From assembly GCA_951406725.2 (NCBI GenBank), contig OX597814.1:75144001-75208000 (forward strand): DNA of 64,000 nucleotides. The letters are read 5' to 3'. The translations under genes and the position numbers were made by a program. Source of the DNA: Octopus vulgaris. Its lineage: Eukaryota. A model generated the notes under the pieces. That model had not been told where the DNA came from. It did no database searches and saw nothing but the letters and a program-made list of their open reading frames with translations. This document shows, in pieces, positions 23,044 through 52,704 of this stretch (within the stretch, counting starts at the first letter, position 1; every line of letters starts with the position of its first letter).

Positions 23044-24712
<1,669 letters not shown>

Positions 24713-25859: not shown

Positions 25860-25904
25860 TGTATATACATACACATAAAATTTCTTTGACGAAGTCTAAC
25901 AACT

Positions 25905-28900: not shown

Positions 28901-29499
28901 TTGATGAAATCCTCCTGAAAACACTAACTAATAGACTAATTGTGAAAACACTACCAGGAGACTACAAGACTAAGTGGAAAATTCTCATGTAACGTAGGAA
29001 TATTCTCACAGAAAATGAACAGGACCCTTTTGAAGAGGCCTTTCAAGACCTCCTTCCATCCCACTGTGAAGACCAGATTACTGATTATTTGAAATCAAGG
29101 CAAATAACTTCACTTTCACCTTAAACAAACATAATTGTACTAAAAACTAAGTTCTAAAAACATCTGACCTGGAAACGATATTAGACCCCAAGTTACAGGA
29201 TTTGGATGTAATGGCCATTGAATCATTTGTAGTCAGAGTCATCCTAGACCTGTTGGGTTCCCTCACTGGCCTTAAACAAATATCTCCTAACTAAGGCTAT
29301 TCTACATAATGTGTACAATGCATATTACAACTACATTTTCTATCTTGAATATAAATACTTTGATTTCAGTTATCTGCATCTTCTTAATTCTCATATTTCA
29401 TTCCATTTGGTTCGAATAAGTATTTCTTTTCTCTGACACACCAACATCATCTATTGAAGCTGATATATCAATAAGATACTTCTTTTCTGATGGCCCTTG
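25905..29499 (+). mobile_element. Possible ancient hAT-like transposon remnant
   Basis: About 28760-28870 reads LLEVLIATTPMTNAIMEEYSYS..VKNE(L)xSTI, resembling the hAT C-terminal dimerisation region. Weak candidate TIRs cagggtcagaaaaaaagtat (25906) and reverse complement caagggccatcagaaaagaagtat (29498). Confidence 0.3.
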
Positions 29500-29521
29500 A
29501 TATACATATATATATAAACAT

Positions 29522-29582
<61 letters not shown>

Positions 29583-29792
29583 CATATATATGTACATATA
29601 TATACATACATATACATACATATATATGTACATATATATACATACATATACATAAATACATATATATATACATGCATATATATAAATACATATATATATA
29701 TACATGCATATATAAACATATATATATATATATATATACATAAATACATATATATATATACATAAATACATATATATATACATGCATATATA

Positions 29793-29866
<74 letters not shown>

Positions 29867-29896
29867 TGTATATATATATATATATATATATACACA
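29500..29896. repeat. (TA)/(CA)/(TACA) compound microsatellite
   Basis: Directly visible. Confidence 0.95.
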
Positions 29897-30530
29897 CTTG
29901 TCCTAAGTCACTTTGACTATTGCTCTCAGCTATGGTCACCATCCAGTGTCAAGTTAATCACAGAACTTGAGGCGATCCAACGAAGCTACACGAAGAAGAT
30001 AGCCTCAGTGCAGCATATAAGTTATTGGGAAAGACTCAAGAGATTGAGACTCTATTCCTTAGAGCGTAGGCGAGAAAGATATGCCATAATATACATCCAG
30101 AAGATCCTAGAAGAACTTGTCCCAAACTTTGGCATCGAGAGTTACACAAATGCCAGAACTGGGCGCCACTGCATAGTGCCAAGGACTCCGAAGTTGCCAT
30201 CAAAATGAAGGACAAGATACTGTGATAGCGTGGGCTTCCGAGGCCCACAGCTCTTCAATATCCTCCTGATCAACCTAAGAGACCTGCATGGGGTGGATGC
30301 AGATGTCTTTAAAATAAAACTGGATCTCTTCTTTTCAGGTGTCCCAGATGAACCAACTTCACGGCAGGAGGTGCAGATGAGGGCAGCTGCATCGAACTCT
30401 CTCATGCACCAAATGGCAATTGCTAAAAAGCATTCGTGAAGTAAAATCATGTAGCAACACCAAATGGTGGTGCCCCAGCATGGCCACAGCTTGTGAGCAG
30501 AAACTAGATAAAAAAAAATAAAATAAAAAA
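29897..30530 (+). mobile_element. CR1-like LINE, 3' fragment with intact 3' end
   Basis: [61 protein letters not shown]. Ends ggtggtgccccagcatggccacagc...gaaac plus an A-rich tail. Confidence 0.9.
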
Positions 30531-30852
30531 TATATACATATATACACATATACATATACACACATATATATATATATATACATATATACACACACATATA
30601 TGTATATATACATATATACACACATATATATATATATTTATATATATATATATATACACATACATATATACACATATATATATACATACATATATACACA
30701 TATAGACACATATATATACATACATATATACACATATATATATACATACATATATACACATATAGACACATATATATACATACATATATACACATATATA
30801 TATATTCATACATATATACACACATATATATATACATACATATATACACACA

Positions 30853-30886
<34 letters not shown>

Positions 30887-31201
30887 CACATATATATATA
30901 TATATATCTATATATACACATATATATGCACATACATATATATATATACATACATATATATATACATATATATATATATATACATACACATACATATATA
31001 TATACATATATATATATATATACATATATATATACACATATATATATATACATATATATATATACACATATAAATACATATATATATATATATATGCATA
31101 TACATATATATACATACATATATATATATATACATATACATACATATATATATATATACATATACATACATATACATATATATATATATACATATATATA
31201 T

Positions 31202-31410
31202 GAAAACATCTTTCTTCAAAATGTGACCTCGTGTGTACCGTTGGCGATTTTTTTTCCTCTGTCTTTCCTTCTCCTATGTTTCGGACGAAGAGCTCCGCTT
31301 GAAACGTTAGACCCTCCTTCTTTCCTTCTTTCCTGAGCGTCCAATAATACTATATTCGTTCCACGTCCTCGTGTTGTGTTTCTTTGTGATTTCTTGTTTG
31401 GATTAACAAC
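31202..31410 (+). mobile_element. Penelope-like terminal-repeat (pLTR) fragment
   Basis: Shares its layout (..gaagagc..gctcgaaacgtt..ttcctgagcg..taatac) with the 3' end of the PLE at 46020-46150; duplicated at 37446-37673. Confidence 0.7.
31278..31312 (+). ncRNA. Minimal type I hammerhead motif, variant core (CGGACGA)
   Basis: gttt-cggacga-a-gagc-tcc-gctt-gaaa-cgt-t-agac: stem I, stem II, GAAA and palindromic ACGU stem III. U4 is changed. Confidence 0.6.
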
Positions 31411-31529
31411 ATATATATATACATATATATATATACATACACATATACATACATATATATATATATACATACGTATATACATATATATAGATAAATGAAA
31501 GAATGGAGTGGAACGACGATTTAACAAAA

Positions 31530-31628
31530 TTCCTTTATTCTCGACATACGTTTCGAAGACTGCATATTCTTAATTCCGAAGGAATAAAGGGTGCATTATG
31601 CCGTCTTCTCATCAGGAAAGACAAGGAA
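31530..31628 (-). ncRNA. Type I hammerhead ribozyme, intact core (within a ~220-bp element at 31490-31707)
   Basis: Minus strand: stem I 5' arm, CUGAUGA (31615-31609), stem II GAAGAC.GCAUA/UAUGC.GUCUUC, GAAA (31554-31551), stem III ACGUAUGU, GUC triplet (31545-31543), stem I 3' arm GAGAAUAAAGGAA. Confidence 0.88.
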
Positions 31629-31837
31629 CTTATGTCAGCATCATGATGAACAAAAACTTTTAGATGACTGCCCACACAAAGTCCATAGTGATAATGAGTG
31701 TTTCTTTATATATATATATATATATACATATATATATACATACATATATATATACATATATATATATACATACATACATATATATACATACATACATATA
31801 TATATATACATACTTATATACATACATATATATATAC

Positions 31838-31892
<55 letters not shown>

Positions 31893-31927
31893 CATACATA
31901 CATATATATATATACATACATATATAT

Positions 31928-32333
31928 ACTCTTTTACTCTTTACTCTTTTACTTGTTTCAGTCATTTGACTGCGGCCATGCTGAAGCACCGCCTTTAGTC
32001 GAGCAAATCGACCCTGGGACTTATTCTTTGTAAGCACAGTACTTATTCTATCGGTCTCTTTTGCCGAACCGCTAAGTGATGGGGACGTAAACACACCAGC
32101 ATTGGTTGTCAAGCAATGCTAGGGGGACAAACACAGACACACACATATATATATATATATACATATATACGACAGGCTTCTTTCAGTTTCCGTCTACCAA
32201 ATCCACTCACAAGGCATTGGTCGGCCCGGGGCTTTAGCAGAAGACACTTGCCCAAGATGCCACGCAGTGGGACTGAGCACGGAACCATGTGGCTGGTTAG
32301 CAAGCTACTTACTACACAGCCACTCCTGCGCCT
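31928..32333 (-). mobile_element. tRNA-derived SINE family B, full-length
   Basis: Head aggcgcaggagtggctgtgtagtaag...gctcagtccc, internal TA/TG microsatellite, and a (taaaagag)n tail. Confidence 0.9.
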
Positions 32334-32964
32334 ATATATATACATACATATATATATACATACATATACATACATACATATATATAAATACATACATATA
32401 TATACAAATATATATATACATACATATATATACAAATATATATATACATACATATATATACATATATATATATACATACATACATATATATACACATATA
32501 TATATACATACATATACATATACATATATATACATATATATATACATATATATACATATACATACATACATACATATATATATATATATACATACATATA
32601 TATACATATACATACATACATATATATATATACATACATATATATATATACATACAAATATATATATATATATACGTACATACATATATATATATATACG
32701 TACATACATATATATATATATATACATACATACATATATATATATATATATGTATGTATATACATATATATATATATACATATACATACATACATATATA
32801 TATATACATATATATTTACATATACATATATATATACATATATATATATACATATATATATATACATATATATATATACATATATATATATATACATATA
32901 TACACACACACACATATATATATATATACATATATACACACACACACATATATATATAAATATA

Positions 32965-33343
32965 CTAGCAGTATCGCCCGGCGTTGCTCAGGTTTGTAAG
33001 GGAAATAACTATAAAGCATTTTTAGAGAGTTATAGCCAAAAAATAGCAAAAAAATGGAAAAAAAATGATGGTAAATTTTTTTTGAGAGTTAAAAAAGGTG
33101 GAGTTGCGTCCCCTAGACGGTCTGTGGTTTGGGTTTCTGATTCTCGACCCCATGTCGAATTTATCGATTTTTTTCAGAACTGGGGGAACTTTTCAAAATT
33201 TTCGCTGCGTTAGTTTTGAATTATGACATTGGGCTATGTGTGTGTCAAGTTTCATCAGAATCGGTTGAAAGCCGTGGTCAGAGTGAGGGTACGAGAAAAC
33301 AGACACACAGAAAACGCACAGACAAACTGCCGTTTATATAGAG

Positions 33344-33348
<5 letters not shown>
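32965..33348 (-). mobile_element. Non-autonomous Helitron
   Basis: Minus strand starts A|TC, ends CTAG|T, and has a GC hairpin (cctgagcaacgccggg) about 8 nt before the CTAG. Confidence 0.8.
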
Positions 33349-33380
<32 letters not shown>

Positions 33381-33440
33381 CACACACATATATATATATA
33401 CATATATACACACATATATATATACATATATACACACACA

Positions 33441-36400
33441 GGAACACTCACAGGCAAGGAACACAGGTACAAGATTTTCTGGGCAGGGAACACTCACGGG
33501 GTCGGGGGCGTGGGTATACTTCTTGCGGAGAAATAGGTAGATAAGGTAATCGAGGTAGTCAGAGTAAGTGACAGAGTAATTAAAATTAGATTAGTCCTTC
33601 ACCATAGGACAGCTACCATCATCTCGGCATATGCCCCTCAACCAGGGCTACCGAAGGACAAAAAGACCAATTCTATGACACCCTATTGCAGACTACCTCG
33701 TTGACAAATGACAGTGACCTTCTCTTCGTGGCAGGTGATTTCAATGGACATGTTGGACGGCATGTCGGGGGCTTCCATGGCGTCCATGGTTTTGGCTCTC
33801 GTAATGAGGAGGGAACCAGGCTGCTGGAGTTCTGCGATGCAAATGACCTTATGGTCTGCAATACCAACTTCAGGAAACCCACCTCTCACCTAGTCACCTA
33901 CCGTTCTGGCAGACACACCAGCGAGATTGACTACATCCTTGCCAGAAAAAGGGAAAGAGGGCTGATTATAAATGCCAAAACCTTTCCAGGCGAAGAGTGT
34001 ACTCCTCAACATAGATTAGTAGTTAGCGACTTCAGGATCAGAGCTAAATGGTTGCCCAGAAGAAGACCAGCTTGGAGGAGAAGGGTCTGGAAGCTTAAAG
34101 ATCCTGCAAATGGACAGAGATTTAGAGGCATACTACTCGAAGCCTTTGACGAAATAGAAAGGGGATATAGCTTCACTTAATGTGGAAGACAACTGGAGAT
34201 TTCTACGGGACAATCTGCTGACAGCCACTGACCAGATCTGTGGATGGAGCAAAGTACCATCTCGACCCAGAGTAACATGGTGGTGGAACACTGTGGTTGA
34301 CAGGGCTATTAGACAAAAGAGACAGGCTTGGAAGGACTGGAAGAATGGTGGTAGCAGGGAATTGTATCAGACAGCCTGAAGGGAAGCTAGGAGACAGGTT
34401 TATTTAGCCAGAGGGGAAGCGGATAAGAAAAAATTTGCCAATGTTCTGAGCCGTGAGGATGAAAGACTTGAGGTATTTCGTGTTGCAAGACAGTGTGTGA
34501 GAGAGAATCGTGATGTGGTAGGAGAGAAGTGTGTTCACATGGATGATGGTTCACTTGCGCTAAATGAGGATGCAAAGAGAGAGGTTTGGAGATGTCACTA
34601 TGAAAGGTTGCTGAATAAAGAAAATGAATGGGATAAAGAGAGTCTGCCTAATGTTGACCCAACAGAGGGACCAGCTATCCGAGTTGATAGTTCCGTGGTA
34701 GCTAAGGCAATTAGAAGCATGAAGACAGGGAAAGCCCCAGGCCCATCAGGAATTACTGCAGAGATGCTCAAAATATCTGGCAGTGTCGGCTATAACCTAG
34801 TCACCCGTATAGTCAACCAGGTGATACACGAAGGAGTCATATCCAATGACTGGTGTAGCAGCATACTAGTCAACTGCTACAAAGGTAAAGGTAATGCCCT
34901 AGATACAAATAATTACAGAGGTATCAAGCTGTTGGATCAGGTAATGAAGGTTACGGAGAGGGTCATAGCCCAACTAATTAGAGAGAGAGCTAGTTTAGAT
35001 GAGATGCAGTTTGGGTTCGTGCCAGGGAAAAGCACCACTGATGCTATATTCCTGGTAAGGCACCTGCAGGAGAAATACCTAGCCAAAGATAAGCCCCTGT
35101 ACCTGGCTTTCGTTGACACAGAGAAAGCCTTTGATAGGGTCCCCCGATCCCTCATCTGGTGGTCAATGAGGAAACTAGGGATAAATGAATGGCTGGTGAG
35201 GGCTGTGCAAGCCATGTACAGAGATGCCGTAAGTAAGGTTAGGGTTGGCAACATGTACACAGAAGAATTCAAAGTAGAGGTTGGGGTCCACCAGGGTTCA
35301 GTACTCAGCCCCCTCCTATTTATCATAGTCCTCCAGGCAATTGTGGAGGAATTCAAGACAGGTTGCCCCTGGGAGCTCCTCTATGCTGACGACCTCGCTC
35401 TAATTGCTGAGTCACTATCAGAACTGGAGGAGAAGTTCCAGGTGTGGAAGGAGGGTTTAGAATCGAGGGGCCTTAGAGTCAACCTAGCTAAAACCAAAGT
35501 ACTAATAAGTAGAAAGGTAGACAATCCACAAATGTCTTCAGGAAGATGGCCCTGCTCGATCTGTAGAAAAGGTGTAGGTAGAAACTCTATAAGATGTACC
35601 CAGTGTAAGCTATGGACACATAAGAGGTGCAGCAATGTCAAAGGTAGGCTAACTGGGAAGATAGTTTTTGTATGTGGCAGATGCTCGGGAGCATTGACCT
35701 CCGAAAATCTGCAGAAAACAACTTCCGTCACTTTCCAGGGCGAAAAACTAGAAGTAGTTGATAGCTCCCGTTATCTAGGTGACCAAGTCAGTAGTGGGGG
35801 TGGGTGCACTGAGAGTGTAACTGCTAGAATAAGAATAGCCTGGGCAAAGTTTAGGGAGCTCTTACCTCTGCTGGTGACTAAAGGCCTCTCGCTCAGAGTA
35901 AAAGGCAGACTGTATGATGCATGTGTACGAACTGCCATGCTACATGGCAGTGAAACATGGGCCGTGACTGCTGAGGACATGCGTAAGCTCATGAGGAATG
36001 AAGCCAGTATGCTCCGATGGATGTGTAATGTCAGTGTACTTACTCGACAGAGCGTTAGTTCCTTGAAATGTTGTACCTAAGAAGCATCAGTTGTGGTGTG
36101 CAAGAGAGACGATTGCGCTGGTATGGTCATGTGGCGAGAATGGATGAAGATAGGTGTGTGAGAAAGTGCCAATCCCTAGCAGTTGAGGGAACCCGTGGAA
36201 GAGGTAGACCCAGGAAAACCCGGGACGAGGTGGTGAAGCACGACCTTCGAACGTTAGGACTCACCATGGAAATGACTAGAGACCGAGACCTATGGAAGTA
36301 TGCTGTGCGTGAGAAGACCCGGCAAGACTAGTGAAGCCATAACCCGTGGCCCCTACCTGGGACGTAGTCAGTCCACCTGTGCATACCTTCCTTCTTGTGA

Positions 36401-36920
36401 ACACTTGTGAAGACCTGTTGAGGCAAGTGAAAATCAAATCAAATCAAATCAAAATAAATGAACATCAATGGAATTTGTATCCTTGTGGTACCAGTGCTGG
36501 TGGCACATAAGAAAACCATCCGAACGTGGCCGTAGCCAGTAGCGCATCGACTGGCCTCCGTGCTGTGGGCATGTAACAAACACCATCCGATCGTGGCCGT
36601 TCGCCAGCCTCGTCTGGCACCTGTGTCGGTGGCACATAAAAAACACCATCCGAGCGTGGCCGTCTGCCACCTGTGTCAGTGGCACATAAAAAACACCATC
36701 CGAGCGTGGCCGTCTGCCAGCCTTGTCTGGCACCTGTGTCGGTGGCACATAAAATCACCCACTACACTCTCGGAGTGGTTGGCGTTAGGAAGGGCATCCA
36801 GCTGTAGAAACACTGCCAGATCTGACTAGCCTGGTGCAGACTTCGGGCTTGCCAGACCCCAGTTGAACCGTCCAACCAATGCTAGCATGGAAAGCGAACG
36901 TTAAACGATGATGATGATGA
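33441..36920 (+). mobile_element. RTE-clade LINE, near full-length and 5'-truncated (APE-RT, a few frameshifts/stops)
   Basis: APE motifs (SAYAPQ, GDFNGHVG, IDYIL, QHRLV). RT ORF 34497-36080 (NYRGIKLL, KAFDRV, GVHQGSVLSPLLF, YADD, YLG). C-terminal RLRWYGHVAR..RGRGRPRKT to 36331, then a 3' UTR and a (GAT)n tail. Confidence 0.97.
36495..36760 (+). repeat. ~65-bp minisatellite (about 4 units) in the RTE 3' UTR
   Basis: Repeated ggtggcacataaaaaacaccatccgagcgtggccgtctgccagcct..tctggcacctgtgtc; one unit is internally deleted. Confidence 0.9.
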
Positions 36921-37537
36921 TATATATACATATATACACATATATATATACATACATATATACACATATATATATACATACATATATACACATATATATA
37001 CATATATATACATATATATATACATACATATATACATATATACATACATATATACATACATATATACACATATATATATACATACATATATACACATATA
37101 TATATATACATACATATATATACATATATACATATATATATATATACATATATATATATACACATATACATATATATATATACACATATACATATACATA
37201 TATACATATATATATATACACATATATATGCACATATATATATACATACATATATATATACATACACATACATATATACATACACATACATATATATATA
37301 CATATATATATATATACATATATATATACACATATAAATACATATATATATATACATATACATACATATACATATATATATATACATACATACATATATA
37401 CATACATACATATATACATACATATATATATATATACATATATATGAAAACATCTTTCTTCAAAATGTGACCTCGTGCGTACCATTGGCGATTTTTTTTC
37501 CTCTGTCTTCCCTTCTCTGGATCTTTCCTTCTCCTAT

Positions 37538-37572
37538 GTTTCCGACGAATAGCTCCGCTCGAAACGTTAGAC
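37538..37572 (+). ncRNA. Minimal type I hammerhead motif, variant core (CCGACGA), in pLTR fragment 37446-37673
   Basis: gttt-ccgacga-a-tagc-tcc-gctc-gaaa-cgt-t-agac. Confidence 0.6.
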
Positions 37573-37822
37573 CCTCCTTCTTTCCTTCTTTCCTGAGCGT
37601 CCAATAATACTATATTCGTTCCACGTCCTCGCGTTGTTGTGTTTTTTTGTGTTTTCTTGTTTGGATTAACTACATATATATATACATATATATATATATA
37701 CATACACATATACATACATATATATATACATACATATATAGATACATATATATATACATATAGATATATATATATATAGATAGATAAATGAAAGAATGGA
37801 GTTGAATGAGGATTTAACAAAA

Positions 37823-37921
37823 TTCCTATATTCTCGACATATGTTTCGAAGACTGCATATTCTTAATTCCGAAGGAATAAAGGGTGCATTATGCCGTCTT
37901 CTCATCAGGAAAGACAAGGAA
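37823..37921 (-). ncRNA. Type I hammerhead ribozyme, intact core (element 37783-38000)
   Basis: CUGAUGA at 37908-37902, same stem II as the 31.5 kb copy, GAAA at 37847-37844, perfectly palindromic stem III ACAUAUGU, GUC at 37838-37836. Confidence 0.9.
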
Positions 37922-38314
37922 CTTATGTCAGCATCATGATGAACAAAAACTTTTAGATAACTGCCCACACAGAGCCCATAGTGATAATGAGTGTTTCTTT
38001 ATATATATATATACATATATACATATATATATACATACATATATACATATATATATACATACATATATACATATATATATACATACATACATACATATAT
38101 AAATACATACATATATATATATATATATACATACATACTTATATACATACATATATATATACATATATATATATATACACATATATATATGGTGGTGCTA
38201 TTAAGTTAGACATGGCCTGGGCCAATAATGGCCGAAACCTATCAAAGTATCAAAGTATATATATATACATATATACATACATACATACATATATATATAT
38301 ATATACATATATAT

Positions 38315-38522
38315 ACTCTTTTACTCTTTACTCTTTTACTTGTTTCAGTCATTTGATGCGGCCATGCTGGAGCACCGTCTTCAGTCGAGCAAATCGACCC
38401 CGGGACTTATTCTTTGTAAGCACAGTACTTATTCTATCGGTCTCTTTTGCCGAACCGCCAAGTGATGGGGACGTAAACACACCAGCATTGGTTGTCAAGC
38501 AATGCTAGGCGAACAAACACAG

Positions 38523-38553
<31 letters not shown>

Positions 38554-38717
38554 AGACAGGCTTCTTTCAGTTTCCGTCTACCAAATCCACTCATAAGGCA
38601 TTGGTCGGCCCGGGGCTTTAGCAGAAGACACTTGTCCAAGATGCCACGCAATGGGACTGAAAACGGAACCATGTGGCTGGTTAGCAAGCTACTTACCAAA
38701 CAGCCACTCCTGCGCCT
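38315..38717 (-). mobile_element. SINE family B, full-length (cassette B copy)
   Basis: Near-identical to 31928-32333. Confidence 0.9.
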
Positions 38718-38886
38718 ATATATATATATACATATATATATACATATATATATACATACATACATATAAATACATACATATATATATATACATACATACA
38801 TACATATGAATATATATATATATATACATACATATATATATACAAATATATATATACATACATACATATATATACAAATATACATA

Positions 38887-38918
<32 letters not shown>

Positions 38919-39359
38919 CATACATACATACATATACATATATATATATATATACATATATATATACATATATGTACATACATATATATATATATATACA
39001 TATATACATACATATATATATACATATACGTACATACATATATATATATATATATACATATATACATACATATATATATATACATATACGTACATACATA
39101 TATATATATACATATATACATACATATACTTACATACATATATATATATACATATATACATACATATATATATATACATATACGTACATACATATATATA
39201 TATACATATACGTACATACATATATATACATATACGTACATACATATATATATATATATATACATACATATATATATATATATATATTTACATATACATA
39301 TATATTTACATATACATATATATTTACATATATATACATATAAACATATACATATAAAC

Positions 39360-39410
<51 letters not shown>

Positions 39411-39479
39411 CATATACATAGATACATATATATACATACATACATATATATTCATATATACATATATATACATATATAA

Positions 39480-41237
39480 AGGTAAAGTTTATGAAAAAAA
39501 CAAAAGACGAAGACAGGTGGTGTACAAAACAAACAGATGTATTAGTATAACGCTCAGGAATAGAAAAAGTCTTTTACGTTTTGAGCCTACGCTTATCTAC
39601 AGAAAGGTACACAGAAAAAAACAAGGAGAGAAAAAAATGTGTGTAGTGGCTAATGATTTATCATGGCGTCTGACTCAGACAAAATGATCAGACGGGAGGA
39701 GGAAAGTAGGGGAGATAACAAGGTAAAGATGACCCCCAACACAAAGGTGCATGTGTGTATAAGAGAGTATGTATGTGCGTATGAAAGATGGCTGGTGGTC
39801 TTGACATATGTGTGGATGTGGAGATGTAGGGATGGGTGTGTGGTGGTGTGTTGTGATGTGTATGTATGTGTAGGTGTGAAGATGTGGGGATGGGTGTGTG
39901 GGTGGTGTGATGTTGTGAGGAGGTGGGGGAGGCGAGAATGGGGAAAGCACGGGTTGGGTGTGGGTTCGGCTGGGGGTTGTGTGTAGGCAGAGGGTGGGGG
40001 TAGAGGTGAGGTACGTGGGGAGGGGAGTGGGATAGGGTGGGGGATAGGAAGGATAGGGAAGGTGGAGTAGTGGTGGGTGGGTTTATGGGGGGAGGGAAAG
40101 GTGGGTACGTGAGGAGAGGAGAGGAGGAGAGAGTAAGAGAGGAGAGAAAGAGAGAGTGAAAGAGTAGGAGAGAAGAGAGAAAGAGAATAAGAGAAGAGAG
40201 AGAAAGAGGGAAGGATGGAAGAAGGAAGGAGGGGAGAGAAAGAAAGAGAGTAGGAGAGAAGAGAGAAAAAGAGTAGAGGTGAAGAGAAGTAGCAGTGAAG
40301 AGATGTGGGAGTGAAGTAGGAGTGAAGAGAAGTAGGAGTTGGGTCAAGAGAGGAGAGTTGGGAGGGATGGAGGAGGGAGGGGGAGAGAGGAAAGGAGAGA
40401 GAGGGAGCAGAGAGAAAGAGACAAAGAGAGTAGGGGAGAAGAGGGAAAGAGAGTAGAGGGAAAAGAGGGAAGAAGAGGGAAAGAGAGTAGGGGTGAAAGG
40501 ATGTAGGAGTGAAAGGATGTAGGAGTGAAGAGAAGTAGGAGTCGGGGAGGAGGTTAGATGAAAAGGGGAGGAGAGTTGAGCCCAAATGGCGTAAAAGATC
40601 GAAGAGAGAAGATTAATCCCTGTTCGTGGCGTAAGTGGGAATCAGGATGGCCTCTGTGTAAGGACAATCCGAACACAGACAGGTGTTGCAAGGATTGACC
40701 GGTGGAGCGGAAATGACATGAGACTGGGGTGTCATTGCCGAGGCGGATGTCTCGAAGGTCTTCCGCGAACCGGTCAGCCAAGCGGCGTCCCGTTTGTCCG
40801 ATGTACAGGGAATGGCAGAGAGCAGGAGATGCAATAGATGATATTGCTGGAGGTGCAGGTGAAGGAGTCGATGATGCGATAGGGTTGATGATGTGTGCCG
40901 GTGAGGAGGGTGGTGTTGGAGAGGTAAGGGCAAGTGCGGCAGCGTGGGCGGGAGCAGGGGAACAAGCCGGGTTGGGAAGGAGGGTTGGGGAAGAAGGCTG
41001 TGAACCAAGAGGTCTCATAGGTTATGGGCTTGTTTGAATGAGGGGAGGGGTCGGTTAGGGAAGATGTGTGAAGTGGACGGGTCGGACTAGAGATACCGGA
41101 AAGCTCAGAGAATGGTGAGTTGGAGAGGTAGGGTGGTAAGTGAGGGGAAAAGGGAGACAGGAGACTGCAGGGCAGGTTTGGGGGGAGAGAGCAGATGCAC
41201 GGTCTACGGAACGTGCTCTGGCAAGGGCGGTGTGGAT
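39480..41237 (-). mobile_element. Penelope-like element (Neptune-like), 5'-truncated and frameshifted
   Basis: Minus-strand fragments PCSRPRCRTC..NIIYCISC and LYIGQTGRRLADRF (GIY-YIG), a pyrimidine-rich 3' UTR, and a terminal repeat similar to 45950-46155. Confidence 0.9.
39571..39606 (-). ncRNA. Degenerate minimal hammerhead in the PLE terminal repeat
   Basis: Reverse complement cttt-ctgtaga-t-aagc-gtag-gctc-aaaa-cgt-a-aaag. GAAA has become AAAA, so it is probably inactive. Confidence 0.55.
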
Positions 41238-41269
41238 ATATACATACATACATACATATATATATTTCT

Positions 41270-41428
41270 TTATTGCCCACAAGGGGCTAAACATAGAGGG
41301 GACAAACAAAGACAGACAAAGGGATTAAGTGATTACATTGTCCCAGTGTGTAACTGGTACTTTATTTATCGACTCCGAAAGGATGACAGGCAAAGTTGAC
41401 TTTGGCGGAATTTAAACTCAGAACGTAA
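41270..41428 (-). mobile_element. SINE family A, 3' part
   Basis: Reverse complement gttctgagtttaaattccgccaaagtcaactttgcctgtcatcctttcggagtcgataaataaagtaccag. Confidence 0.8.
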
Positions 41429-41429
41429 C

Positions 41430-43110
41430 TGACGTACAGTGTATAATGCTGACCTATCCACTGAATATGGTCACTAATATTCTAAAACGTCACTGGATAG
41501 AAAATGAAATCAGTGCACTGATAAATGCTTGCTTAGTACATTCACCATTACACCATTGCGTAAAAGCTAAAGTCTATGGTAAAATCCGCTGAAAAATTAG
41601 TGTCACAATCCTTTTACAGATCTGTAAAACAGATCAAAAACAAAATAAATCACATATCATTTCATACTTTACACATGCACATGGTAACACTGGAAGCTAT
41701 ACTTGTCAATGGACATAGCTCACCAACTGACCCAATGCCAACAGGTCAGGAGTCACTTCAATGACCCATTAGCCAGCAACAAATAACACCCTCATTGATA
41801 TTGCTATCTGACCTAATTCCATCCATTGATATTGCTATCTGACCTAATTCTACCTTGGCAAACCAGGACTAGCAACAACAGCCTGCCACTGCTACTACAT
41901 TGAAAGCACCTTGTTTGGCACCACTATCTGACCTACTGCTACTACAATAGGACCACTGACCAATGAGCCTGCCAATATAGAAAAACCTCTAGTATGCCCA
42001 TATCAAAAATCCTGTTGATATCACTCTCAAGGTAACTGTAGACTTGGCCCCAGCGGCACCAACAACAAGGAACGCTGTGCTTTTTTCCATCCTACCTGTT
42101 AAGAGCACCTGATCCTAAATTGGATGCACAAAAGGCAATGGATGCACCTTCTTCCATCCTAGACTACCAAACTTGTGTCACTACCACCATCTGAAGGGCA
42201 CAAAACGATTGAAAAATAAATATAAACAGCAACAGAGGAGACCTACGACAACAACAAAAACAAAATACAACCAAACAATGAAGAGAGAACTATGGAAAAA
42301 CATAACACTAAATAACATAAACATGAACTATGTATCATCTGACGAAGTGGCAAACCAAAGAGGCAACTCTTTTTTACTAACTTATCTAGAAAATATGAAG
42401 GCCAACCTAAGCCAGGAGATCCAGCGAGCTATCAGCAACCATCTATGCAAAATACAAGGAACACCCACCCACCACCAACTAGAAAATCATACACACACAG
42501 CTCCATACAAAAACTACCCTCATTGCTACCTCTGAACAACATAAAACATAACTTAAAATGATGCAAACATCAAACTACCCTTACCTCGACATTCCTGTTA
42601 AATGTATGTGGCATCAACCCATCACTCATTGTTCAAACAGTACATTGCTTCCCTTTCTTTATCCTTACTGAAACTCACCTAAACAGCACACATATGGATA
42701 CTGAAGTGAAAATAAAAGATTTCACCATCATCCGTGCAGATTGCACAGACCAAAATAAAGAGGGGACAGCCATCTTTCTCCATGACTACTTTTCAGTTGA
42801 TACCAAGGACATATTTTCCAATGGCTATTGTGAATCTATATCACTATTCAACAAAGCCAAAGACATAATCATTGTTGGTCTTTACAGGCCTCCCCAAGCA
42901 CCTCTAAAGTGCTTTGAAGAGTACCTCAACAAAATCAAGTCCTTCCTTCAAAAATACAACTTTGGAAACACTAGTGATGGGTGATTTTAACCTCACTCAT
43001 ATAAACTGGCCTACAAATACTCTGAAATTAGGCAAATGCTCTACATCAGATAAAGCAGCAGCAGAATTACTCTTTTATCTAATGGATAAATTCATCCTGA
43101 CTCAGCTATA
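41430..43110 (+). mobile_element. CR1-like LINE, 5' half: ORF1 remnant with CCCH fingers + APE endonuclease remnant
   Basis: About 42000-42170 reads C*YHSQGNCRLGPSG..ERCAFFHP..GCTKGNGCTFFHP. About 42600-43110 reads LTETHL..IIRAD..GLYRPP..VMGDFNLTHINW. Confidence 0.75.
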
Positions 43111-43111
43111 T

Positions 43112-43730
43112 ATAGATGAGGACAGCTGTGTGAAAAAGTGTCACACCCTAACAGTGGAGGGAACATGTGGAAGAGGTAGACCCAGGAAGACTAAAGATGA
43201 GGTGGTGAAGCACGAGCTTCAAATGTTGGGCCTCACAGAGACGATGCTCTGCTTGAGAAGAGCCGGCAAGCCAAGTGAGCCAGTGTAGCATAACTGGCCC
43301 ATTTAAGAGGACTCTTCAATCATTGGGCAATAAACTGTGCTTGAGAAGACCTGTTGAGTTACGTGAAATCATTGTCGTGGCCGATGCCAGTACGGCGTAA
43401 CTGGCATCTGTGCCATTAGCATGTAAAAAGCACCATTTGAGCATGGTTGATGCCAGTGCGCCTGACTGATCCTGTGCTGGTAGCATGTAAAAAGCACCAT
43501 TTGAGCATGGTTCTCATGCCGGTGGCACGTAATAGGCACCCACTACACTCTTGGAGTGATTGGTGTGAAGAAGGGCATCCAGCTGTAGAAACCTTGCCAG
43601 ATCAGATTGGAGCCTGGTACAGCCTTCTGGCTTGCTAGTCCTCAGTCAAACCATCCAACCCATGCCATGTGTATGTGAGTATGCATGTATGAGTTGTGTG
43701 TGTGTATGGAAGTTAAACAATGATGATGAT
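43112..43730 (+). mobile_element. RTE LINE 3' fragment (older subfamily)
   Basis: DEDSCVKKCHTLTVEGTCGRGRPRKT, a 3' UTR with two minisatellite-like units, and a gatgatgat tail; homologous to 36143-36920. Confidence 0.88.
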
Positions 43731-43871
43731 GTATATATATATGTATATATATATATATAAAGTTCACAGTTCACTTTCCAGAGGGTTCCTTTTTTCCTTA
43801 GTCTCTACTCTTCTATTTCATTACTTATCTGTGAATTTTCCGTGTCTAGATCTTTCATATGGTCTCTATTT

Positions 43872-43947
43872 GTCTCTTATGATGGAATACCCCATATTCA
43901 GGCATACTCGCCAATCACTTGGGATATCCCAGAAACAGCTGTAAGAC
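43872..43947 (+). ncRNA. Type I hammerhead motif (G5U core change) in a ~415-bp element at 43758-44172
   Basis: gtct-cttatga-tggaatacccca...tgggatatccca-gaaa-cagctgt-a-agac: palindromic stem III ACAGCUGU and a GUA triplet. Confidence 0.75.
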
Positions 43948-44257
43948 CTCAACTAATTTAATAATAATATTAAATAATGTATACGACTTGAGATACTTGT
44001 TATGCTTTCGGCATTTGTTGTCCTCTTTCATAAATGTATATCTACTAAATTCGAAACCTAGAATGGATCTGTAGCTCGTCTCAGGTATGGGCTTGGAACC
44101 CTGATAATCCATTGCAGCACTTACCCAGCATACCTATTCATTTAGATCACCAGTGAACTAAACCCCCATATTCTGTATATATATGTATATGTGTGAATGT
44201 GTATATATCTTTATTTTTAGGTGAACATATGTATGTATACACACACACATATGTATG

Positions 44258-46155
44258 TAGCCCTCCACTTCACTTCCACTATCTCCAACACCTCTGTCTC
44301 CTTCCTCGACATTTCGGTTAGCATTCTTCACTCCACTCTTACCACCTCCATTCACTACAAACACACAGACTCACACTCATACCTCAACTTCTCTTCCTCC
44401 CACCCAGAACACACCAAGCTTTCCATCCCCTATTCCCAATTCCTCCGTCTACGTAGGCTCTGTAGTGACGACCATGACTTTGAGACTCAGTCTCAACGTA
44501 TGGCTCACCACTTCACCCTACGTGGATACCCCCTCACCACTATCCACACCGCCCTTGCCAGAGCACGGTCCGTGGACCGTGTATCTGCTCTCTCTCCCCG
44601 AACCCGCCCTGTAGTCTCCCGCCTCCCTTTTCCCCTCACTTACCACCCCACGACCCTACGTCTCCAACGCACCATTCTTCGAGCTTTCCGTCATCTCCAG
44701 TCCGACCCGTCCACTTCACACCTCTTCCCTAACCGACCCCTCCCCTCTTTCAAACGAGCCCACAACCTTCGAGACCTTTTGGTCCATAGCTCCTTCCCTG
44801 ACCCTACCTCCCAACCCGGCTCGTTCCCCTGCTCCCGCCCACGTTGCCGCACTTGCCCTTACCTCTCCAACACCACCCGCCTCACTAGCACCCACCATCG
44901 ACCCTATCCCATCATCCACTCCTTCACCTGCACCTCCAGCAATATTATCTATTGCATCTCTTGCTCTCTCTGCAATTCCTTGTACATCGGACAAACGGGA
45001 CGCCGCTTGGCTGACCGGTTCGCGGAACACCTTCGTGACATCCACCTTGCGAACGACACACCGGTCTCACGCCATTTCCGCTCCACCGGTCACTCCTTGC
45101 AACACCTATCTGTGTTCGGTTTGTCCTTACACAGAGGCCATCCGGATTCCCGTTTGCGCCGTGAACAGGAATTAATCTTCTCTCTTCGCTCTTATACGCC
45201 ATTTGGTCTCAACTCTCCCCCCTCCTCATCTAACCCCCCTCCTCACCTATCCTTTCTCCCCCGACCCCTACTTCTTCAGTCCTTCATCCTTTCACCCCTA
45301 CTCCCCTTCCCTCTTTCTCCCTCCCTCTTCCCCTTCCCTCTGCTCCCTCACTCCCCTTCTCTCTCCCCCTCTCCCTCTTTCCTCCTTCATCCCCTTCCTT
45401 CTCCCCCATCCTCTCCTCTTCCCCCTCTTCTTTCCCTCCCCTTCTCCCCCTCCCTCTCTTCTCCTCACTACACCACATGACTTTACACATCACATCACAT
45501 ATGATGTGCCATACTAATACACACACCAACTAATACATACTAATACGTACTAATACATACTAGTACATACTAATACTTACACCAACCCTATACATACACA
45601 CGTCCAGACCCCGCACACGCACTTATACTCTCTCACACACACACACACACACCTATACATACCAATACGTACTAATACATACTAATACATACTAATACAT
45701 ACACCAACCCCATACATACGCACGTCCAGACCAATCCTACGCACTAATACTCTCTCATACACACACACACACACACACACACCCTTATACATACTAATAC
45801 ATACACCAACCCTATACATACACACATCCAGACCCCTCTCACGCACTTTTAGCTGGTCCCTCAACCCATTTATCAACCCTATTATCTCCCCTTATTTCGC
45901 TCTCGCGTCTCATGTTTGATCTTTGACCCCTGGCCGAAATCAGATCGCCATGTTGATTCGTTAGCTACTGCACGCATTTTTTTCTCTCCTTCTTTCTGTG
46001 TTTTTCTCTCTCTGTGTATCTTTCTGTTGAAGAGCGTAGGCTCGAAACGTTAAAGACTTGTTTTATTTATATTTCCTGAGCGCCATACTAATACAATTGT
46101 TCGTTTGTTTTCCACCTGCCTTCGTCTTTTGTCTATTTTCATAAAGCTTCCCGTT
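44258..46155 (+). mobile_element. Penelope-like element (Neptune-like), 5'-truncated; RT thumb + Cys linker + GIY-YIG in one open frame
   Basis: ORF 44221-45480: SFLDI..YKHTDSHSYLNFSSSHP..SIPYSQFLRLRRLCS..CSRPRCRTC..IIYCISCSLC..LYIGQTGRRLADRFAEH..HF..GH..E..FGLN. Followed by a pyrimidine tract and a hammerhead-bearing terminal repeat. Confidence 0.95.
46019..46056 (+). ncRNA. Minimal type I hammerhead in the PLE terminal repeat (CUGUUGA variant)
   Basis: tcttt-ctgttga-a-gagc-gtag-gctc-gaaa-cgt-t-aaaga. All stems pair, with palindromic ACGU stem III. Confidence 0.75.
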
Positions 46156-47969
46156 ATATATATATATATATATGTGTGTATGTGAGTATGCATGTATGTG
46201 TTGTATGTGTGTATGTATATATGTGTGTGTGTGTGTGTGTATTATTACTTAGTAAACTGAAAAGATTAAATGGTTTATAGTATGTGTAGGTATTTGTGTA
46301 TACATATGTATATATGTCTGTGTATGTGCATGTATGTATATCTATGTAGGTATGTATAGGTATATATGATGTATTTGTATGTATATGTGTATATACATAT
46401 GTAATCAATATTGGTCTATATGTATATCTATAAATAAGTATATTTATGTGTATCTGGATATGTGTATATAGATGCATGTAACTATGTATGTATTTATGTA
46501 TACATGTATGCGAGTATTGTCTGTATATATGTGTATATCTGCACATGTGTTTATGTGTATATATTGGTGTGTGTACATATACATATATTTTAATTTGTAT
46601 ACATCTTAAATAAATAAATTAATGTATGAATAAATAAAGTGATACTAATTTTTACTAATTTTTTAAAAAATTAAAAATTGATCATTGTATTAGGTTGTGA
46701 TAAAATTTTTAAATTATGCACGATGACATGAACAAAATTTTTTTTCCGTGTGATATTTTCCCCAACTTTATAATGTGACAACATTATTTAACATAATTGT
46801 ATTTGAGGCCAAATTTTGTAGTTATACTGAACGATTTTTAAGCTATTTTATTTTAGCTGAAAGGTTTGTAGCTTTAAACTAGTATATTAACGAGGATATC
46901 TATAATATTTCAGTGGATTCATTTATAAATTTAATACTAAGTACCATAAAATATATTTGTCTTAAGTGTAAACTATATTACTATATTTGTAGTTAAATTT
47001 AGGATTTAAGTTTTAATTATGCTATCATCTTCATATAAAATGATTATAAGTATATAAATTGAATAATGATATATAGATAATTTTATAAAAGGCCCTATCG
47101 TGATCATAAGTACGTATTTGCGGTTATTTTTCCGTAGGCAATGAATGTATAAATATATAAACACTGATTTACGGTGGTATTTTCCTCTGATAAACTAAGT
47201 AAATTTGTGTTTTTATACCTGTTATTTACTAAGAATAATGTTTATACTAGGATGAATAAATAGATTAGAATAATTATTATATATAATTATATATCTTTTT
47301 GAATAATTATGCACATATGAATATTTCTTGTATTTTATATCATCATATTATGTTCTTTCAGATTTGTATACACATAAAAATTATAGAATAATAAAACTAT
47401 TGGCTTACTCTAATTTATTCCCTTCTGTAAAACTAAGTAATATTCTGAAACTTTATTTATTTATATATTATCATTTTTATGTAAGAAATAGCATCGTTTA
47501 TAATAATTGTAACTTTATACGTTTGTTTTACATTGGTGTATTTAGTAGAAACTTTTGAGTGAATGAATTGTTGATTAAAAATTTTTTTAAATGAATTTAG
47601 TGTCTGAATAAAATATGTCCTTATCTATTTATTTTTTTCATCATAGTATATGGTAATTTGAAATAGAATATATTTCCTACTCTGCCATAAATTCTTACAT
47701 ATCATATAGATCTTATATAATAAAGAGGGCAGAGATTATTTTCAATTGAATATCTTTAGATTAATATTATTGGAGATGCATAAGAACATTTTATGGCCGT
47801 TGTAATTTTTCTTTACTTAATTATTTTATCTATTTGAATTTTGCTTTTGTTCATATTATATTTAATTATATTTTTGAATTATTAATGCTCACGCTTGTAA
47901 ACATAAGTATATTTTAAATCAGTCTCTTTTGTGATTTACCAGTCCTTGCATGGGATTTTTGCTTTTTGT

Positions 47970-48067
47970 ACAAATATTACCCTGAAGAGATTCGTATGTA
48001 TAAACGTAAATTTTTATAAATTCACGAGTGGATATGAGTCGAAACAAATTATTGGATATATATTTGT
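47970..48067 (+). ncRNA. Type I hammerhead motif with intact CUGAAGA/GAAA core and long stem II
   Basis: acaaatattacc-ctgaaga-gattcgtat...atatgagtc-gaaa-caaatt-att-ggatatatatttgt. Stem II has 9 bp, stem I pairs with bulges, stem III has a C:A mismatch. Confidence 0.7.
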
Positions 48068-48499
48068 TTTAATTATTTATTATATTATATCTTTTTATAG
48101 TATAATTATATTATAATGTAAATAAATTTTTAATATGTCAATTGTATTTCTATACTTCCTTTAATATTTGTATATTGTAATTGTATCATATTATTTGTAG
48201 TATTCAACAGAAGCACCAGTGAAAATTGGATGTTTTCCATCCTTTTAAAGGAAATGGCTTTTGCCTTGGTTTGATTTATATATTACATGGAAAAATATGA
48301 GCAAGAGAAATAATATTCTTAAGATTATAAACCTGGAAAAGTACAGGACAAGTTTCTACAGTTTGAAAAGTTCAGGACTTTGCTAGTAAAGTACAAAACA
48401 AAAACATTTTTTTTCCAGGCTATGCTGTTATGCTAATTAATAATGTGTCAATTAATAATTTAAGATTTTACTTTACTGAAAGTTGAACAATAAATTTAA

Positions 48500-48632
48500 A
48501 GAGTGTGTTGTGCGTGCATGCGTGTGTGATAGAGAGAGAGAGGTGTGAATGAGAGTGACAATGTACATTCTTTTTATTTATTTTTTCTTGTTTTTTTTTG
48601 AATGAGTGAATTACTGAGAGAGATGTGTTGTC

Positions 48633-48690
<58 letters not shown>

Positions 48691-48744
48691 GCAGTGTAAA
48701 TTTTATATATTTACTTTCTCTTGCATCTTTTTTAGTGTTTGACT

Positions 48745-48797
<53 letters not shown>

Positions 48798-49080
48798 GGT
48801 GTGTCTTGCTCTGTGAGAGAGTGAGAGAGAGAATGATAGTATAAATTTTTTTTGCATGTATGTATAAGTAGCTAAGTAAAATTTACGCTGTCTCTCTCTC
48901 TTGCTCTGTCACATACCTTCTTTCTCTCTCTCTCTCTCCCAGTCAATCACTCACAAATTCACTGAAAAAAGATGTGAGAAAAAACTTTTAAATGTATGCT
49001 GTCCCTCTCACTCTCTCTCTCACATATACACACAACACACACTTTCTGTTTTGCATTCCTCATCAGCACATACATACGTC
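48500..49080. repeat. (GA)n tracts followed by (TC)n tracts, an imperfect inverted arrangement
   Basis: catcttttttagtgtttgactgagagaga (about 48724) versus tctctcccagtcaatcac..tgaaaaaagatg (about 48933-48974). Confidence 0.5.
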
Positions 49081-49789
49081 CATGTCCTCTCTCTTTCACT
49101 TTATGCTGGTTTCAAACAAAATGTACAATTCCACTCGCAAAAATAAATAAAAAAATTTTATGAAATTTACTAAACGCCAAGTTAAAACAAAAGATTGCCA
49201 AAATTTCTAAATAATATTTTAGTTTTTTTCATTTTTATGATATAATCGCATTAATTAATACAGACGACATAGTTAAACTAACTGCAAATTAGTGGTATCG
49301 TTGATAATTTGTTCCTTACCTCAGCGAAACTGGTGACATATATTAAAGGTCCCCTTATAGAACTATATTTATAAAAAAGTATAGAATTACATTATCACCC
49401 TCAAACAAACACTTATAACTTTTTTCTTTTAAAACTTCATTGCATGAGATTGATACCATGAAATTCCACAAATTGAGCTCTATCATTTAAGCTTAATTAA
49501 TATATCGTTTTTTTTTTTTTAAAAAAAAGCTAATTATACCTAAAAGCAATTTTTTGCCTTACTTATATTTTTCTTTATAATATTTTACCTCACAACTTTT
49601 TTGATACAAATTTTTGTTGCAGGGGATTAAAACTATGAAATTCTTCACGCTTTCTTCTATCATTGAAGCGAAGATAAATATATTTTGCTTTTAAAATAAA
49701 AAAGTTATTTAGATCTAAACTTGACTGGAGGCATTACTTACTCTCCTATAATGCTGCTACAAATATTGATGTAAACTTTTTTCTACTGG

Positions 49790-49910
49790 ACCAAATCTCA
49801 ATTTTTTATGCCAAAATGTAGCTAGGGAGCAGCCCTCTTTAAGAGTGTTAATAGTTTTCAATTTGGTTAAGAACTGAATTAGTGACAAAGCTCTGAAGAT
49901 GTTGCAAGTA
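49790..49910 (+). repeat. Old dispersed repeat; inverted homologue at about 2110-2215
   Basis: tttatgccaaaatgtagct...gaactgaattagtgacaaagct matches the reverse complement of 2114-2213. Confidence 0.55.
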
Positions 49911-51019
49911 AATTGCAGCCTTAAGAATATTATTCAACTACTACCGTACTTGAATGGTATTTGTACATATGTATGTATGCATGGATATATATACATATTT
50001 ATATCAATGTACGTATGGATATATATATATATAAATATATACACACACACACACATATGTATGCCTGCATGTATATATATATTAAAAAAAGAATGTTGTT
50101 TATTTTAATTTAGAAAAATAAAGAGTATTAAAAAGAACACATTATGGGATGACCCAATATAGAGGCTACCAAATAAACTATATTTTTGGCATGACTCTTT
50201 TTTACAACTAAAATAACCTTGGAAATGAGGTCAGGTCACACAATTTTGAGGTCATTTTCAGGCAACATTTCAATTTGCTTCTTATGTTTCACTTATGTGT
50301 AGAATTCTACACAGACATTTATGAAAAGGTACACATAAATATTGTATTAAAATAAACCACAACCAAAAAGTTTCATTAAAAGACATCCATTTCTTTATAT
50401 GTTATGAAGAAATAGTCACTCACTCTCTTTCTCTCAAATGCACACACACACATACAAAAAAGATGTATGCATGTGTATTTATGTATGTGTATATGTATGT
50501 GTGTGAGAGAGTGAATGCTACTTACATATACATGCAAAAAATACATACATGACACACACCACTCTCTCTCTCTTCCAGACACACACATGTTCATTTCATA
50601 TACATGTACATCTTTCACTTTCTGCTTTCACTTTGAAGCAGATGTCGCCTTTTCAGTTTCTGCTCTCTTCAAAGTATAAAGAAATAGAAAATTTTATGGA
50701 AATTAACAAACAATCATATGATTCCATATAATTGAGTTGATGGGGGAGGGGGGAATTAAAATTTTGAAAACATGATTTCTGGCCAAAACCATATTAACTC
50801 CCTTTTATACAATGAAATAGTATATAGTTTGTGATTCTTCTTAAGAACAGAAAACACTTTCATACAAACCCATGCCAATTGTACCCTCCTCTCTTTACTT
50901 TTAAACAAACAATAACTTCCATTACACCAGTAATCCAGTTCTCTATATATCAGCTGTGCTGATTCTACCCATAAGAAAGAAACAAATAATACAATGTGAC
51001 TGTAGGTCATAACACCTTG

Positions 51020-51215
51020 GCAATGCCAGGATGCATCGCTAGTAAAACATGATTTCTGGTAAGGTAGCCGCAGGAGAAATACACAGCTAAAGATAAACCT
51101 CAGTACTTGGTCTTTGTTGATTTGGAGAAAGCCTTTGGCAGGGTCTCCCAATCCCTTATCTGGTGGTTAATGTGGAAACTAGGGATAGACGAGTGGTTGG
51201 TGAGAACTGTACAAG
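51020..51215 (+). mobile_element. Internal RT fragment of the RTE family
   Basis: gcaggagaaatacacagctaaagataaacc...gagaaagcctttg...atctggtggt...aaactagggatag matches 35050-35210. Confidence 0.85.
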
Positions 51216-51227
51216 TTATTATTAATA

Positions 51228-51350
51228 ACATTGCCTTTCATCCTTTTGGGGTCAATAAAATAAGTACCAGTTGAGCACTGGGGTTGATGTAAATTAACTT
51301 AACCTTCTTCCCTCAAAATTTCAGGCTTTGAGCCTATAGTAGAATGGATT
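51228..51350 (+). mobile_element. SINE family A, 3' half
   Basis: ttgcctttcatccttttggggtcaataaaataagtaccagttgagcactggggttgatgta, followed by an (att)n tail. Confidence 0.8.
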
Positions 51351-52704
51351 ATTATTATTAATACCTAAGAGAAAAAGGTAGATAGTGAAAACTAGCAGTT
51401 TCAATCCTAGCTGAAGTCAATTCATTCTTTATTTTTTAAAAAATATATTCACAAAGTTGTGGTCATACACAACTATGAAACTATGAGACAATGGTTAAAT
51501 AAAGATATTGACAACAGGGTAGGAATATTTTACTAATTATACCTTATATAAACCTATATCTTCAATTAAAAACAATTTTGTTTCTATAAATAGGAAAGTT
51601 CATTAGCTTAACTTGAGAATATTGCTGATATTACTGGAAATTATCTTATTAAAATGACACTAAACAGATGTATAGTTGTTTGTTACTTCAACAAATTCAA
51701 TGATTTTTTCCCTCCATCCATTATGATAAATTTGAAGTCATTTTGTTTTTACTTTTAATCAACATTTAAATAATGAAAAGTTATGAAGTATCATGTTTCG
51801 AGAGTAGACAGCAAAGAACTTTCCTTATGAAGATAAAATAAAAAAAATAAAAAAACCCATCACCATCAACAAAAAACAATTTGTTAATCACCTTTCAACA
51901 TCAAATAACTTTTAATTATTGAAGATTTCCTTAATGATAACTTTTCAATAAATTATATTTGACAGAATTTCTTAAAATGCAAATAACTTAACTAATTCTA
52001 ACCCTAATATGTTACAGTCACACAATTTCCATTTGTATAATTGTCGACAGCATAAGAAGTGAAAAATTTCTGAGCTGAATGAATAAATTATGCAATAGTT
52101 CAAGATCTTTAATACTTTATTGAAGAGAAAACTGAAGATAAAGAAGAGGACACCTGAAATGCAGTAAATACTGAGTCATTAGAAACATGCAGATAAATAT
52201 TACATCTGTATGTATCTGAATAGCTGCTTAAGTTGCTACAGTTATAGTAAAATGTGGAATTGCAGTTATTCTACATTAGTTTTCTGAATCACAAAAGTCC
52301 TTGGGGCTTGTAGTTAACTCTGATTCCATAATTAAGCAAGTGAGAAACAAATCTTCCTTTTGATTAGAAATGTCCATCATATATAGGTTTACCATGGAAG
52401 GCACTGAGCTCTGTGTATAAACATATAAATTATTTGGTGAATTCCACAGTACTGTCACTTCTTACAACAATTAATTATACCAGTCATGATACTTTTTCAG
52501 AAATATGTCGACTTGGATGCTGAAAGCAAAATATTTCAGCAGTGTCAGTGACAAGATTTAAAACTCTAGCTTCTTGGCTAGTCGTTGGGTACTCTATTAA
52601 TTTAGATAACTACTCTGTCAGTTACACTACACTGAGTATTTACAATTAACCTAATGTTTCTCAAAATTGCAACATTGCTAAGTGAAATTATAATATCAAA
52701 AAAG

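Follow-up and report, generated by a model that had tools for sequence, protein, structure and literature searches.

Why should a single octopus intron hold eight hammerhead ribozyme motifs, and do any of them still matter to the element or to the host? The question arises in a 64,000-nucleotide stretch of Octopus vulgaris contig OX597814.1 (the window), where a first-pass annotation, made from the letters alone, had placed eight type I hammerheads and read them as a retroelement ecosystem: an autonomous Neptune-like Penelope-like element (PLE) accompanied by several short non-coding hammerhead elements, perhaps new retrozyme families. We conclude that the eight motifs are very probably the hammerhead-bearing 3' ends, or pseudo-long terminal repeats (pLTRs), of five PLE families, left by six truncated insertions and one local duplication, most of them now likely inert. 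This type of system is already known from PLE hammerheads and from retrozymes as pLTR derivatives; judged from sequence, what looks new is a variant of the catalytic core, A6U.

All eight motifs were located between 31278 and 48075 with their parts in type I order (Table 1), and genome searches (2.8 Gb) assigned them to five dispersed repeat families (A–E), in line with the earlier estimate of about five. The annotation had also described each motif as having core, stem II, GAAA, stem III and NUH; the order held, while intact cores and stems did not, since five of the eight carry damaging changes. A1 has G at position 4 and U at 11.1; A2 keeps the family core CCGACGA with G10.1 changed to U; C2 has AAAA in place of GAAA (G12A) and A at 10.1, together with the U6 of its family; the D copy has G5U in a family whose core is canonical and whose palindrome is ACAGCUGU; and the E copy has G16.2A in a family with a canonical core and a long stem II. 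Only B2 and C1 agree with their families across core and stems, C1 showing the family C core CUGUUGA (A6U), and B1 is off by one wobble, located in its stem III palindrome (predicted cut after 31543). Most of the window motifs are thus likely to be inert now, as far as their sequence can tell.

The palindromic stem III reported for nearly all motifs was found as ACGU, ACAUAUGU, ACAGCUGU or ACAAAUUGU. Family E belongs to the same type: it folds with ACAAAUUGU followed by GG, which pairs with CC to form stem I, and this ruled out a long monomeric stem III. A ninth motif considered at 38220 proved to be the tail of a long interspersed nuclear element (LINE). Two proposed checks were run. A type I descriptor tolerating at most one core mismatch matched five of the eight motifs in 31101–48200, compared with a mean of 0.025 and a maximum of 1 in 40 dinucleotide-preserving shuffles; the other three were missed through changes particular to the copy, or because stem I falls short of the length that the descriptor demands. 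Rfam gave no hammerhead family among the matches listed (150 of 158), just microsatellite-driven microRNA matches.

What links these motifs to PLEs is their context in longer copies. Initial searches gave candidate counts of 3085 (A), 2224 (B), 793 (C), 2467 (D) and 471 (E), of which 40 were scored in each of the five family searches. Copies share a common 3' end, show graded 5' truncation and lie beside (TA)n, and a second pLTR in inverted orientation is frequent (7 of 30 loci in family B). Elsewhere in the genome, each family is joined to a Penelope-like open reading frame (ORF), most weakly for D and E, so the short non-coding elements proposed earlier were not recovered as such. On motifs alone, A and C would be Neptune-type and B, D and E Hydra-type; Pfam missed the Hydra-type ORFs, which were therefore assigned by motifs.

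The Neptune-like PLE of the first-pass annotation is present in families A and C. Family C includes a full-length copy (L155) with two pLTRs, a reverse transcriptase (RT) with DKG, a CX4CX2C linker and a GIY-YIG endonuclease with CCHH; across the pLTR, identity is 99.3% in 29 further top copies. The young C copy in the window retains the RT C-terminus, CX4CX2C linker, GIY-YIG endonuclease, 3' untranslated region (UTR) and pLTR. In family A, a Neptune-type endonuclease is followed by the 3' UTR and then the A pLTR at L444, L445 and L450, and the A-linked ORF aligns to that of family C at about 40–75% by segment. An internally deleted element, with the ORF N-terminus fused directly to an A pLTR, was also seen at L312:1200-1640, and L419 looks alike.

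Among the Hydra-type families, B is represented by an 804-amino acid ORF with DKT and YRDD motifs (L239). Its endonuclease has CxxC and CxH near the end, lacks CCHH and carries the RWL form of RWK; at L151:1076-2374 an Asn-rich low-complexity stretch occupies the place of the zinc-finger (CxCX5C) linker before the endonuclease, and overall identity to the family C ORF is 20%. Family D has B-type endonuclease remnants, with no clear CxCX5C linker, upstream in several of 20 loci, and in most of its copies (for example, L076:1718-1803) stem II is flanked by two extra bases, a C that follows position 9 and an A that precedes G12. In family E, an inverted pLTR abuts an endonuclease remnant with CxCX5C at L255, followed by pieces of the E 3' UTR. 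Family E at first looked like a 1.7-kb element that lacks coding capacity and has a constant 5' end, a candidate that was dropped once further loci, with the ORF link at L255, were considered.

Family A is where a different origin has most to recommend it. Here the element, and perhaps others, would be non-autonomous, resembling a retrozyme or a short interspersed nuclear element (SINE), transcribed from its own pLTR promoter and copied by a Neptune protein. At least 7,733 exact-core copies exist, nearly all about 210 bp long with 5' ends clustered near one site; they fall into two subfamilies with diagnostic differences (a younger one with C4 and an older one with U4), and animal retrozymes are described as pLTR derivatives (bioRxiv 10.64898/2026.07.22.740005). 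However, the A pLTR also flanks ORF-bearing elements: at 9 of the 20 ORF loci it sits some 1 kb upstream of the ORF, and five of these nine have the CCGA core. Its upstream 3' UTR extension occurs at 323 places in the genome, and copy ends differ from the ribozyme cut site. Short head-to-tail arrays, which the retrozyme interpretation of the first-pass annotation would call for, were absent from 150 loci of the five families and from 50 further A loci. We consider a non-autonomous origin improbable. An entirely ORF-free family A, suggested by the short copies, was ruled out by the ORF-linked loci. Canonical A copies were likewise considered as CpG decay products of CCGA, and this too was rejected, as they form the older subfamily with its own diagnostic sites.

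We therefore retain truncated PLE ends as the explanation, while several observations weigh against it. None of 50 position-picked A loci reached the 3' UTR and ORF, and the length and clustered 5' ends of most A copies indicate that some could be copied without an ORF. For family D the ORF is known as remnants only, and for E the ORF link is a single interrupted locus. For most of the motifs, the state of minimum energy returned by folding programs is not the hammerhead dimer, and cofolding did not single out the dimer. Finally, all other core bases are kept in family C, which argues that some catalytic or binding role persists.

Comparison of related lineages suggests that the fold has been maintained in the source elements. 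When family B was aligned with two related lineages (five sequences, three lineages), both sides had changed in 6 of 20 pairs, and 91% of cells were paired versus 32–52% with partners slid. Stem covariation, whose absence would have spoken against the motifs, is thus found, on a limited set of five sequences and with a weak control: 115 of 500 shuffles gave an equal number of covarying pairs. In relatives of B and D, one palindrome is replaced by another (ACAUAUGU by ACACGUGU and ACAGCUGU by AGAGCUCU, respectively). From these patterns we infer selection on the hammerhead fold in source elements. Conservation of the core is divided among families: B, D, E and older A have the canonical CUGANGA and GAAA, whereas family C has U6 and younger A has C4.

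The two variants differ in their distribution. With the rest of a 29-nucleotide pattern fixed, 15,252 places in family C have U at position 6, whereas 168 have A there and 397 have C or G. Collecting copies by their downstream flank gave U6 in 24 of 24 distinct copies (59 matches, 35 of which were removed as duplicates or for lack of a stem II anchor). In a set of 30 U6 loci picked by position, every base occurs at N7, 29 loci have A or U at H17, and the median identity among downstream flanks is 69%; because these positions and flanks vary while U6 stays, we regard U6 as an old family C trait kept through many subfamilies. The number of A6 copies, 168, fits point mutation, as the C or G count indicates, though three of ten examined (L263–L265) have divergent flanks and may represent an older A6 subfamily. 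In family A, position 4 is C in 5,507 copies and U in 2,226. Among 80 metagenome loci of related elements, ten have a hammerhead on the ORF strand; all ten have A6 and two have C4. The C4 contigs (L503 and L515) are related elements of other organisms, and U4C is also known from a viroid (PMC3088659), which shows that this variant recurs beyond the octopus genome.

A6U was not seen among these ten metagenome hammerheads, a small sample. Neither was a natural A6U variant found in the literature searched, which did not cover the variants of Lunse et al. 2017. That study reportedly describes many PLE hammerhead variants, which may include A6U.

How might U6 affect the ribozyme? Changes at position 6 lower activity, with an observed rate constant below 0.1 per min for A6C (PMC3088659), and from such data we predict that fixed U6 likely slows cutting in family C. 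One could still suppose that the A6U motif is a fully active ribozyme, its function restored by dimerization, a tertiary contact, the element's protein or a metal such as Mn2+, with cleavage serving the element cycle. The remaining core bases are all kept while free positions vary, and Mn2+ restores activity to a naturally occurring A6C variant (PMC7151607), both of which fit this idea; yet, besides the cost of position 6 changes, minimal PLE hammerheads cut weakly even when their cores are canonical (PMC4209133), and in vitro cleavage could be dispensed with (PMC11167929), which leaves it rather doubtful. Contigs from four presumed-RNA runs cover family C pLTR sequence, with the greatest depth at the ribozyme, and are uninformative on expression, strand or cut ends. 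A broader proposal, which we put forward as possible, is that a Neptune-type radiation of more than 15,000 copies kept its hammerhead with U in place of A6 while the other core positions stayed under selection. Under that proposal the U6 hammerhead could perhaps be either a working A6U ribozyme, through dimerization, protein or metal rescue, or a non-cutting signal, the fold having been turned into an RNA signal for the element's own protein.

The mechanism that we favor for truncated PLE ends draws on published PLE work: the element's RT and GIY-YIG protein would nick AT-rich DNA and copy the RNA from the pLTR end, and early termination would leave 5'-truncated pLTR fragments. This would match reports that PLE hammerheads lie in pLTRs, mostly as single truncated copies of low activity that work as dimers, with consensus CUGANGAH (PMC4209133), and that reverse transcription is initiated internally in the RNA and mutants with a dead ribozyme show normal insertion in vitro (PMC11167929). 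The source-element hammerhead would cut weakly, as a dimer through its palindromic stem III, and in family C U6 would likely slow cutting without hindering spread. Efficient cleavage is probably not needed for copying, because the U6 family has more than 15,000 exact copies together with near-identical young ones.

Next, we asked whether the cluster is unusual and whether the host has any part in it. The reading frame continues from the exon that ends at 69744 into the one that starts at 22240, so all eight motifs lie in one 47.5-kb intron, as the annotation had proposed; the host gene, on the minus strand, encodes a polypeptide N-acetylgalactosaminyltransferase 1-like protein (GalNAc-transferase 1-like; one exon with E 6e-32). 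Within this intron, the block of A1, B1 and a SINE has a second copy 6.3 kb further along, where A2, B2 and a SINE keep that order, with about 96% identity per part, and we therefore count six insertions rather than eight. The common 5' flank of the duplicated blocks occurs three times in the genome, twice in the window and once on C13, where it lies in a near-identical stretch. Locus L167 on C13 (G000:C13:20597000-20600240) is 98–100% identical to window 31202–34407 and ends at a run of N; it may be a duplicate produced by the assembly or else a segmental duplication of very recent origin.

In a background sample of 40 evenly chosen 10-kb stretches (400 kb), we counted 15 motif copies of the five families, about one per 27 kb, four of them in one stretch. 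By extrapolation, the families together may account for about 100,000 hammerhead-bearing copies in the genome. Six insertions in 16.8 kb compare with 0.63 expected (Poisson 5e-5, with borders chosen post hoc and clumped counts), and six in the whole window with 2.4 expected (P 0.036). Given the high genome-wide background and the contribution of duplication, the cluster is a modest local excess. A microsatellite hot spot was considered as its cause and not supported (12.8% versus a median of 9.6% and a maximum of 23%).

Recruitment of the cluster by the host gene, for example with B1 and B2 dimerizing across 6.3 kb to cut the pre-mRNA, could appeal to their canonical cores, compatible palindromes and host-transcript sense. 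Nevertheless, B1 and B2 are 96–97% like thousands of family copies and arose by duplication with their neighbors. Just three motifs, B1, B2 and C2, share the orientation of the host pre-mRNA, the other five being antisense; five of the eight are damaged, and the background density of such motifs is high. We thus regard host recruitment as highly improbable. The cluster itself is ordinary transposon debris, and its value lies in the core variants to which it led.

Table 1 Hammerhead motifs, PLE-derived fragments and host intron (window coordinates)
Feature	Position	Strand	Remarks
A1 hammerhead	31278-31312	+	family A
B1 hammerhead	31539-31619	-	family B
A2 hammerhead	37538-37572	+	family A
B2 hammerhead	37832-37912	-	family B
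C2 hammerhead	39571-39606	-	family C
D hammerhead	43872-43947	+	family D
C1 hammerhead	46019-46056	+	family C
E hammerhead	about 47970-48075	+	family E
Family A pLTR fragment (Neptune-type family 2), decayed	31215..31407	+	holds A1
Family B pLTR fragment (Hydra-type), canonical core, long stem II	31490..31706	-	holds B1
Second family A fragment, from local duplication	37459..37672	+	holds A2
Second family B fragment, from local duplication	37783..37999	-	holds B2
Older 5'-truncated Neptune-type family C copy: endonuclease remnant, 3' UTR, pLTR	39480..41238	-	holds C2
Family D pLTR fragment (Hydra-type)	43786..44172	+	holds D motif
Young 5'-truncated Neptune-type family C copy	44259..46155	+	holds C1
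Family E 3' UTR and pLTR (Hydra-type), about 2 kb, AT-rich	46175..48270	+	holds E motif
Host intron of GalNAc-transferase 1-like gene	22241..64000, runs on to 69743	-	exons join in frame

Other repeats in the window include two LINE copies, at 33440–36920 (+), between the duplicated blocks, and at 1–2060 (−), which encode an endonuclease, RT and PHD-like finger and are 87.5% alike. A long inverted repeat at 54117–54295 (83% complementary) is possibly a miniature inverted-repeat transposable element.

Further hammerheads came to light by chance in the flanks of the loci examined. Many belong to additional families with palindromic stem III and canonical cores (L009, L059, L100, L151, L153, L157, L160, L164, L248, L260, L262, L263, L305, L307, L328, L366 and L386); their palindromes vary, and stem II reaches up to about 75 nucleotides. 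Elsewhere in the genome, L356:2745-4763 (G000:C1, near 20.00 Mb) is a true tandem hammerhead repeat with a 359-bp unit in 5.6 copies that are 98% alike; it has a canonical type I core, and two motifs lie nearby on the other strand. Its sequence fits a non-LTR retrozyme, and L139 holds a relative with a different palindrome.

For PLE biology, the background to these families is that PLE hammerheads cut weakly and could be dispensed with in the single reconstituted system. Neptune-type sister families with canonical, U4C and A6U cores, all of them amplified in one genome, offer a natural series bearing on whether cleavage matters, and one of them (C) has young near-intact copies. Descriptor searches that require CUGA would miss the A6U family.

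Our search by title or abstract returned no paper on these octopus motifs; an octopus genome paper annotates PLEs, with ribozymes unmentioned in its main text (PMC13282606), and the supplement rows listed for PMC8557442 include octopus Naiad entries with no match to the family C motif. The closest counterparts of A and C are the minimal type I hammerheads in the pLTRs of animal PLEs (Cervera and de la Pena 2014, PMC4209133), with which they share a stem I of 4–5 bp, an extra base between positions 9 and 10.1, a G10.1–C11.1 pair and a palindromic ACGU in place of stem III; in both, single truncated copies prevail and pairs on opposite strands are found. In contrast to those elements, family C has a fixed A6U and younger A has U4C, U3–A8 being the sole core variant in the portions of that text and supplement compared, from which cephalopods are absent.

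At the protein level, families A and C resemble Neptune clade PLEs (Craig et al. 2021, PMC8557442) in the RT with DKG, CX4CX2C linker and C-terminal GIY-YIG with CCHH, as well as in pLTRs in partial tandem and (TA)n neighbors. They differ in their non-canonical ribozyme cores and are set apart from Nematis by motifs only. Hydra clade PLEs (PMC8557442) share with family B the DKT motif, the RWL form of RWK, the lack of CCHH and the CxxC and CxH around the endonuclease end, and with family E the CxCX5C linker; canonical hammerhead cores and (TA)n insertion are likewise common to them. Unlike in that clade, B has an Asn-rich stretch for the CxCX5C linker, stem II is about 50 nucleotides in B, D and E, and the E 3' UTR exceeds 2 kb. 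Lastly, non-LTR retrozymes (Cervera and de la Pena 2020, PMC7229834; bioRxiv 10.64898/2026.07.22.740005), described as pLTR derivatives there and in PMC6765202, have in common with our families a type I hammerhead in a short, pLTR-related repeat. As described in those sources, however, retrozymes are ORF-free tandem repeats, whereas families A–E are dispersed single ends of ORF-bearing elements.

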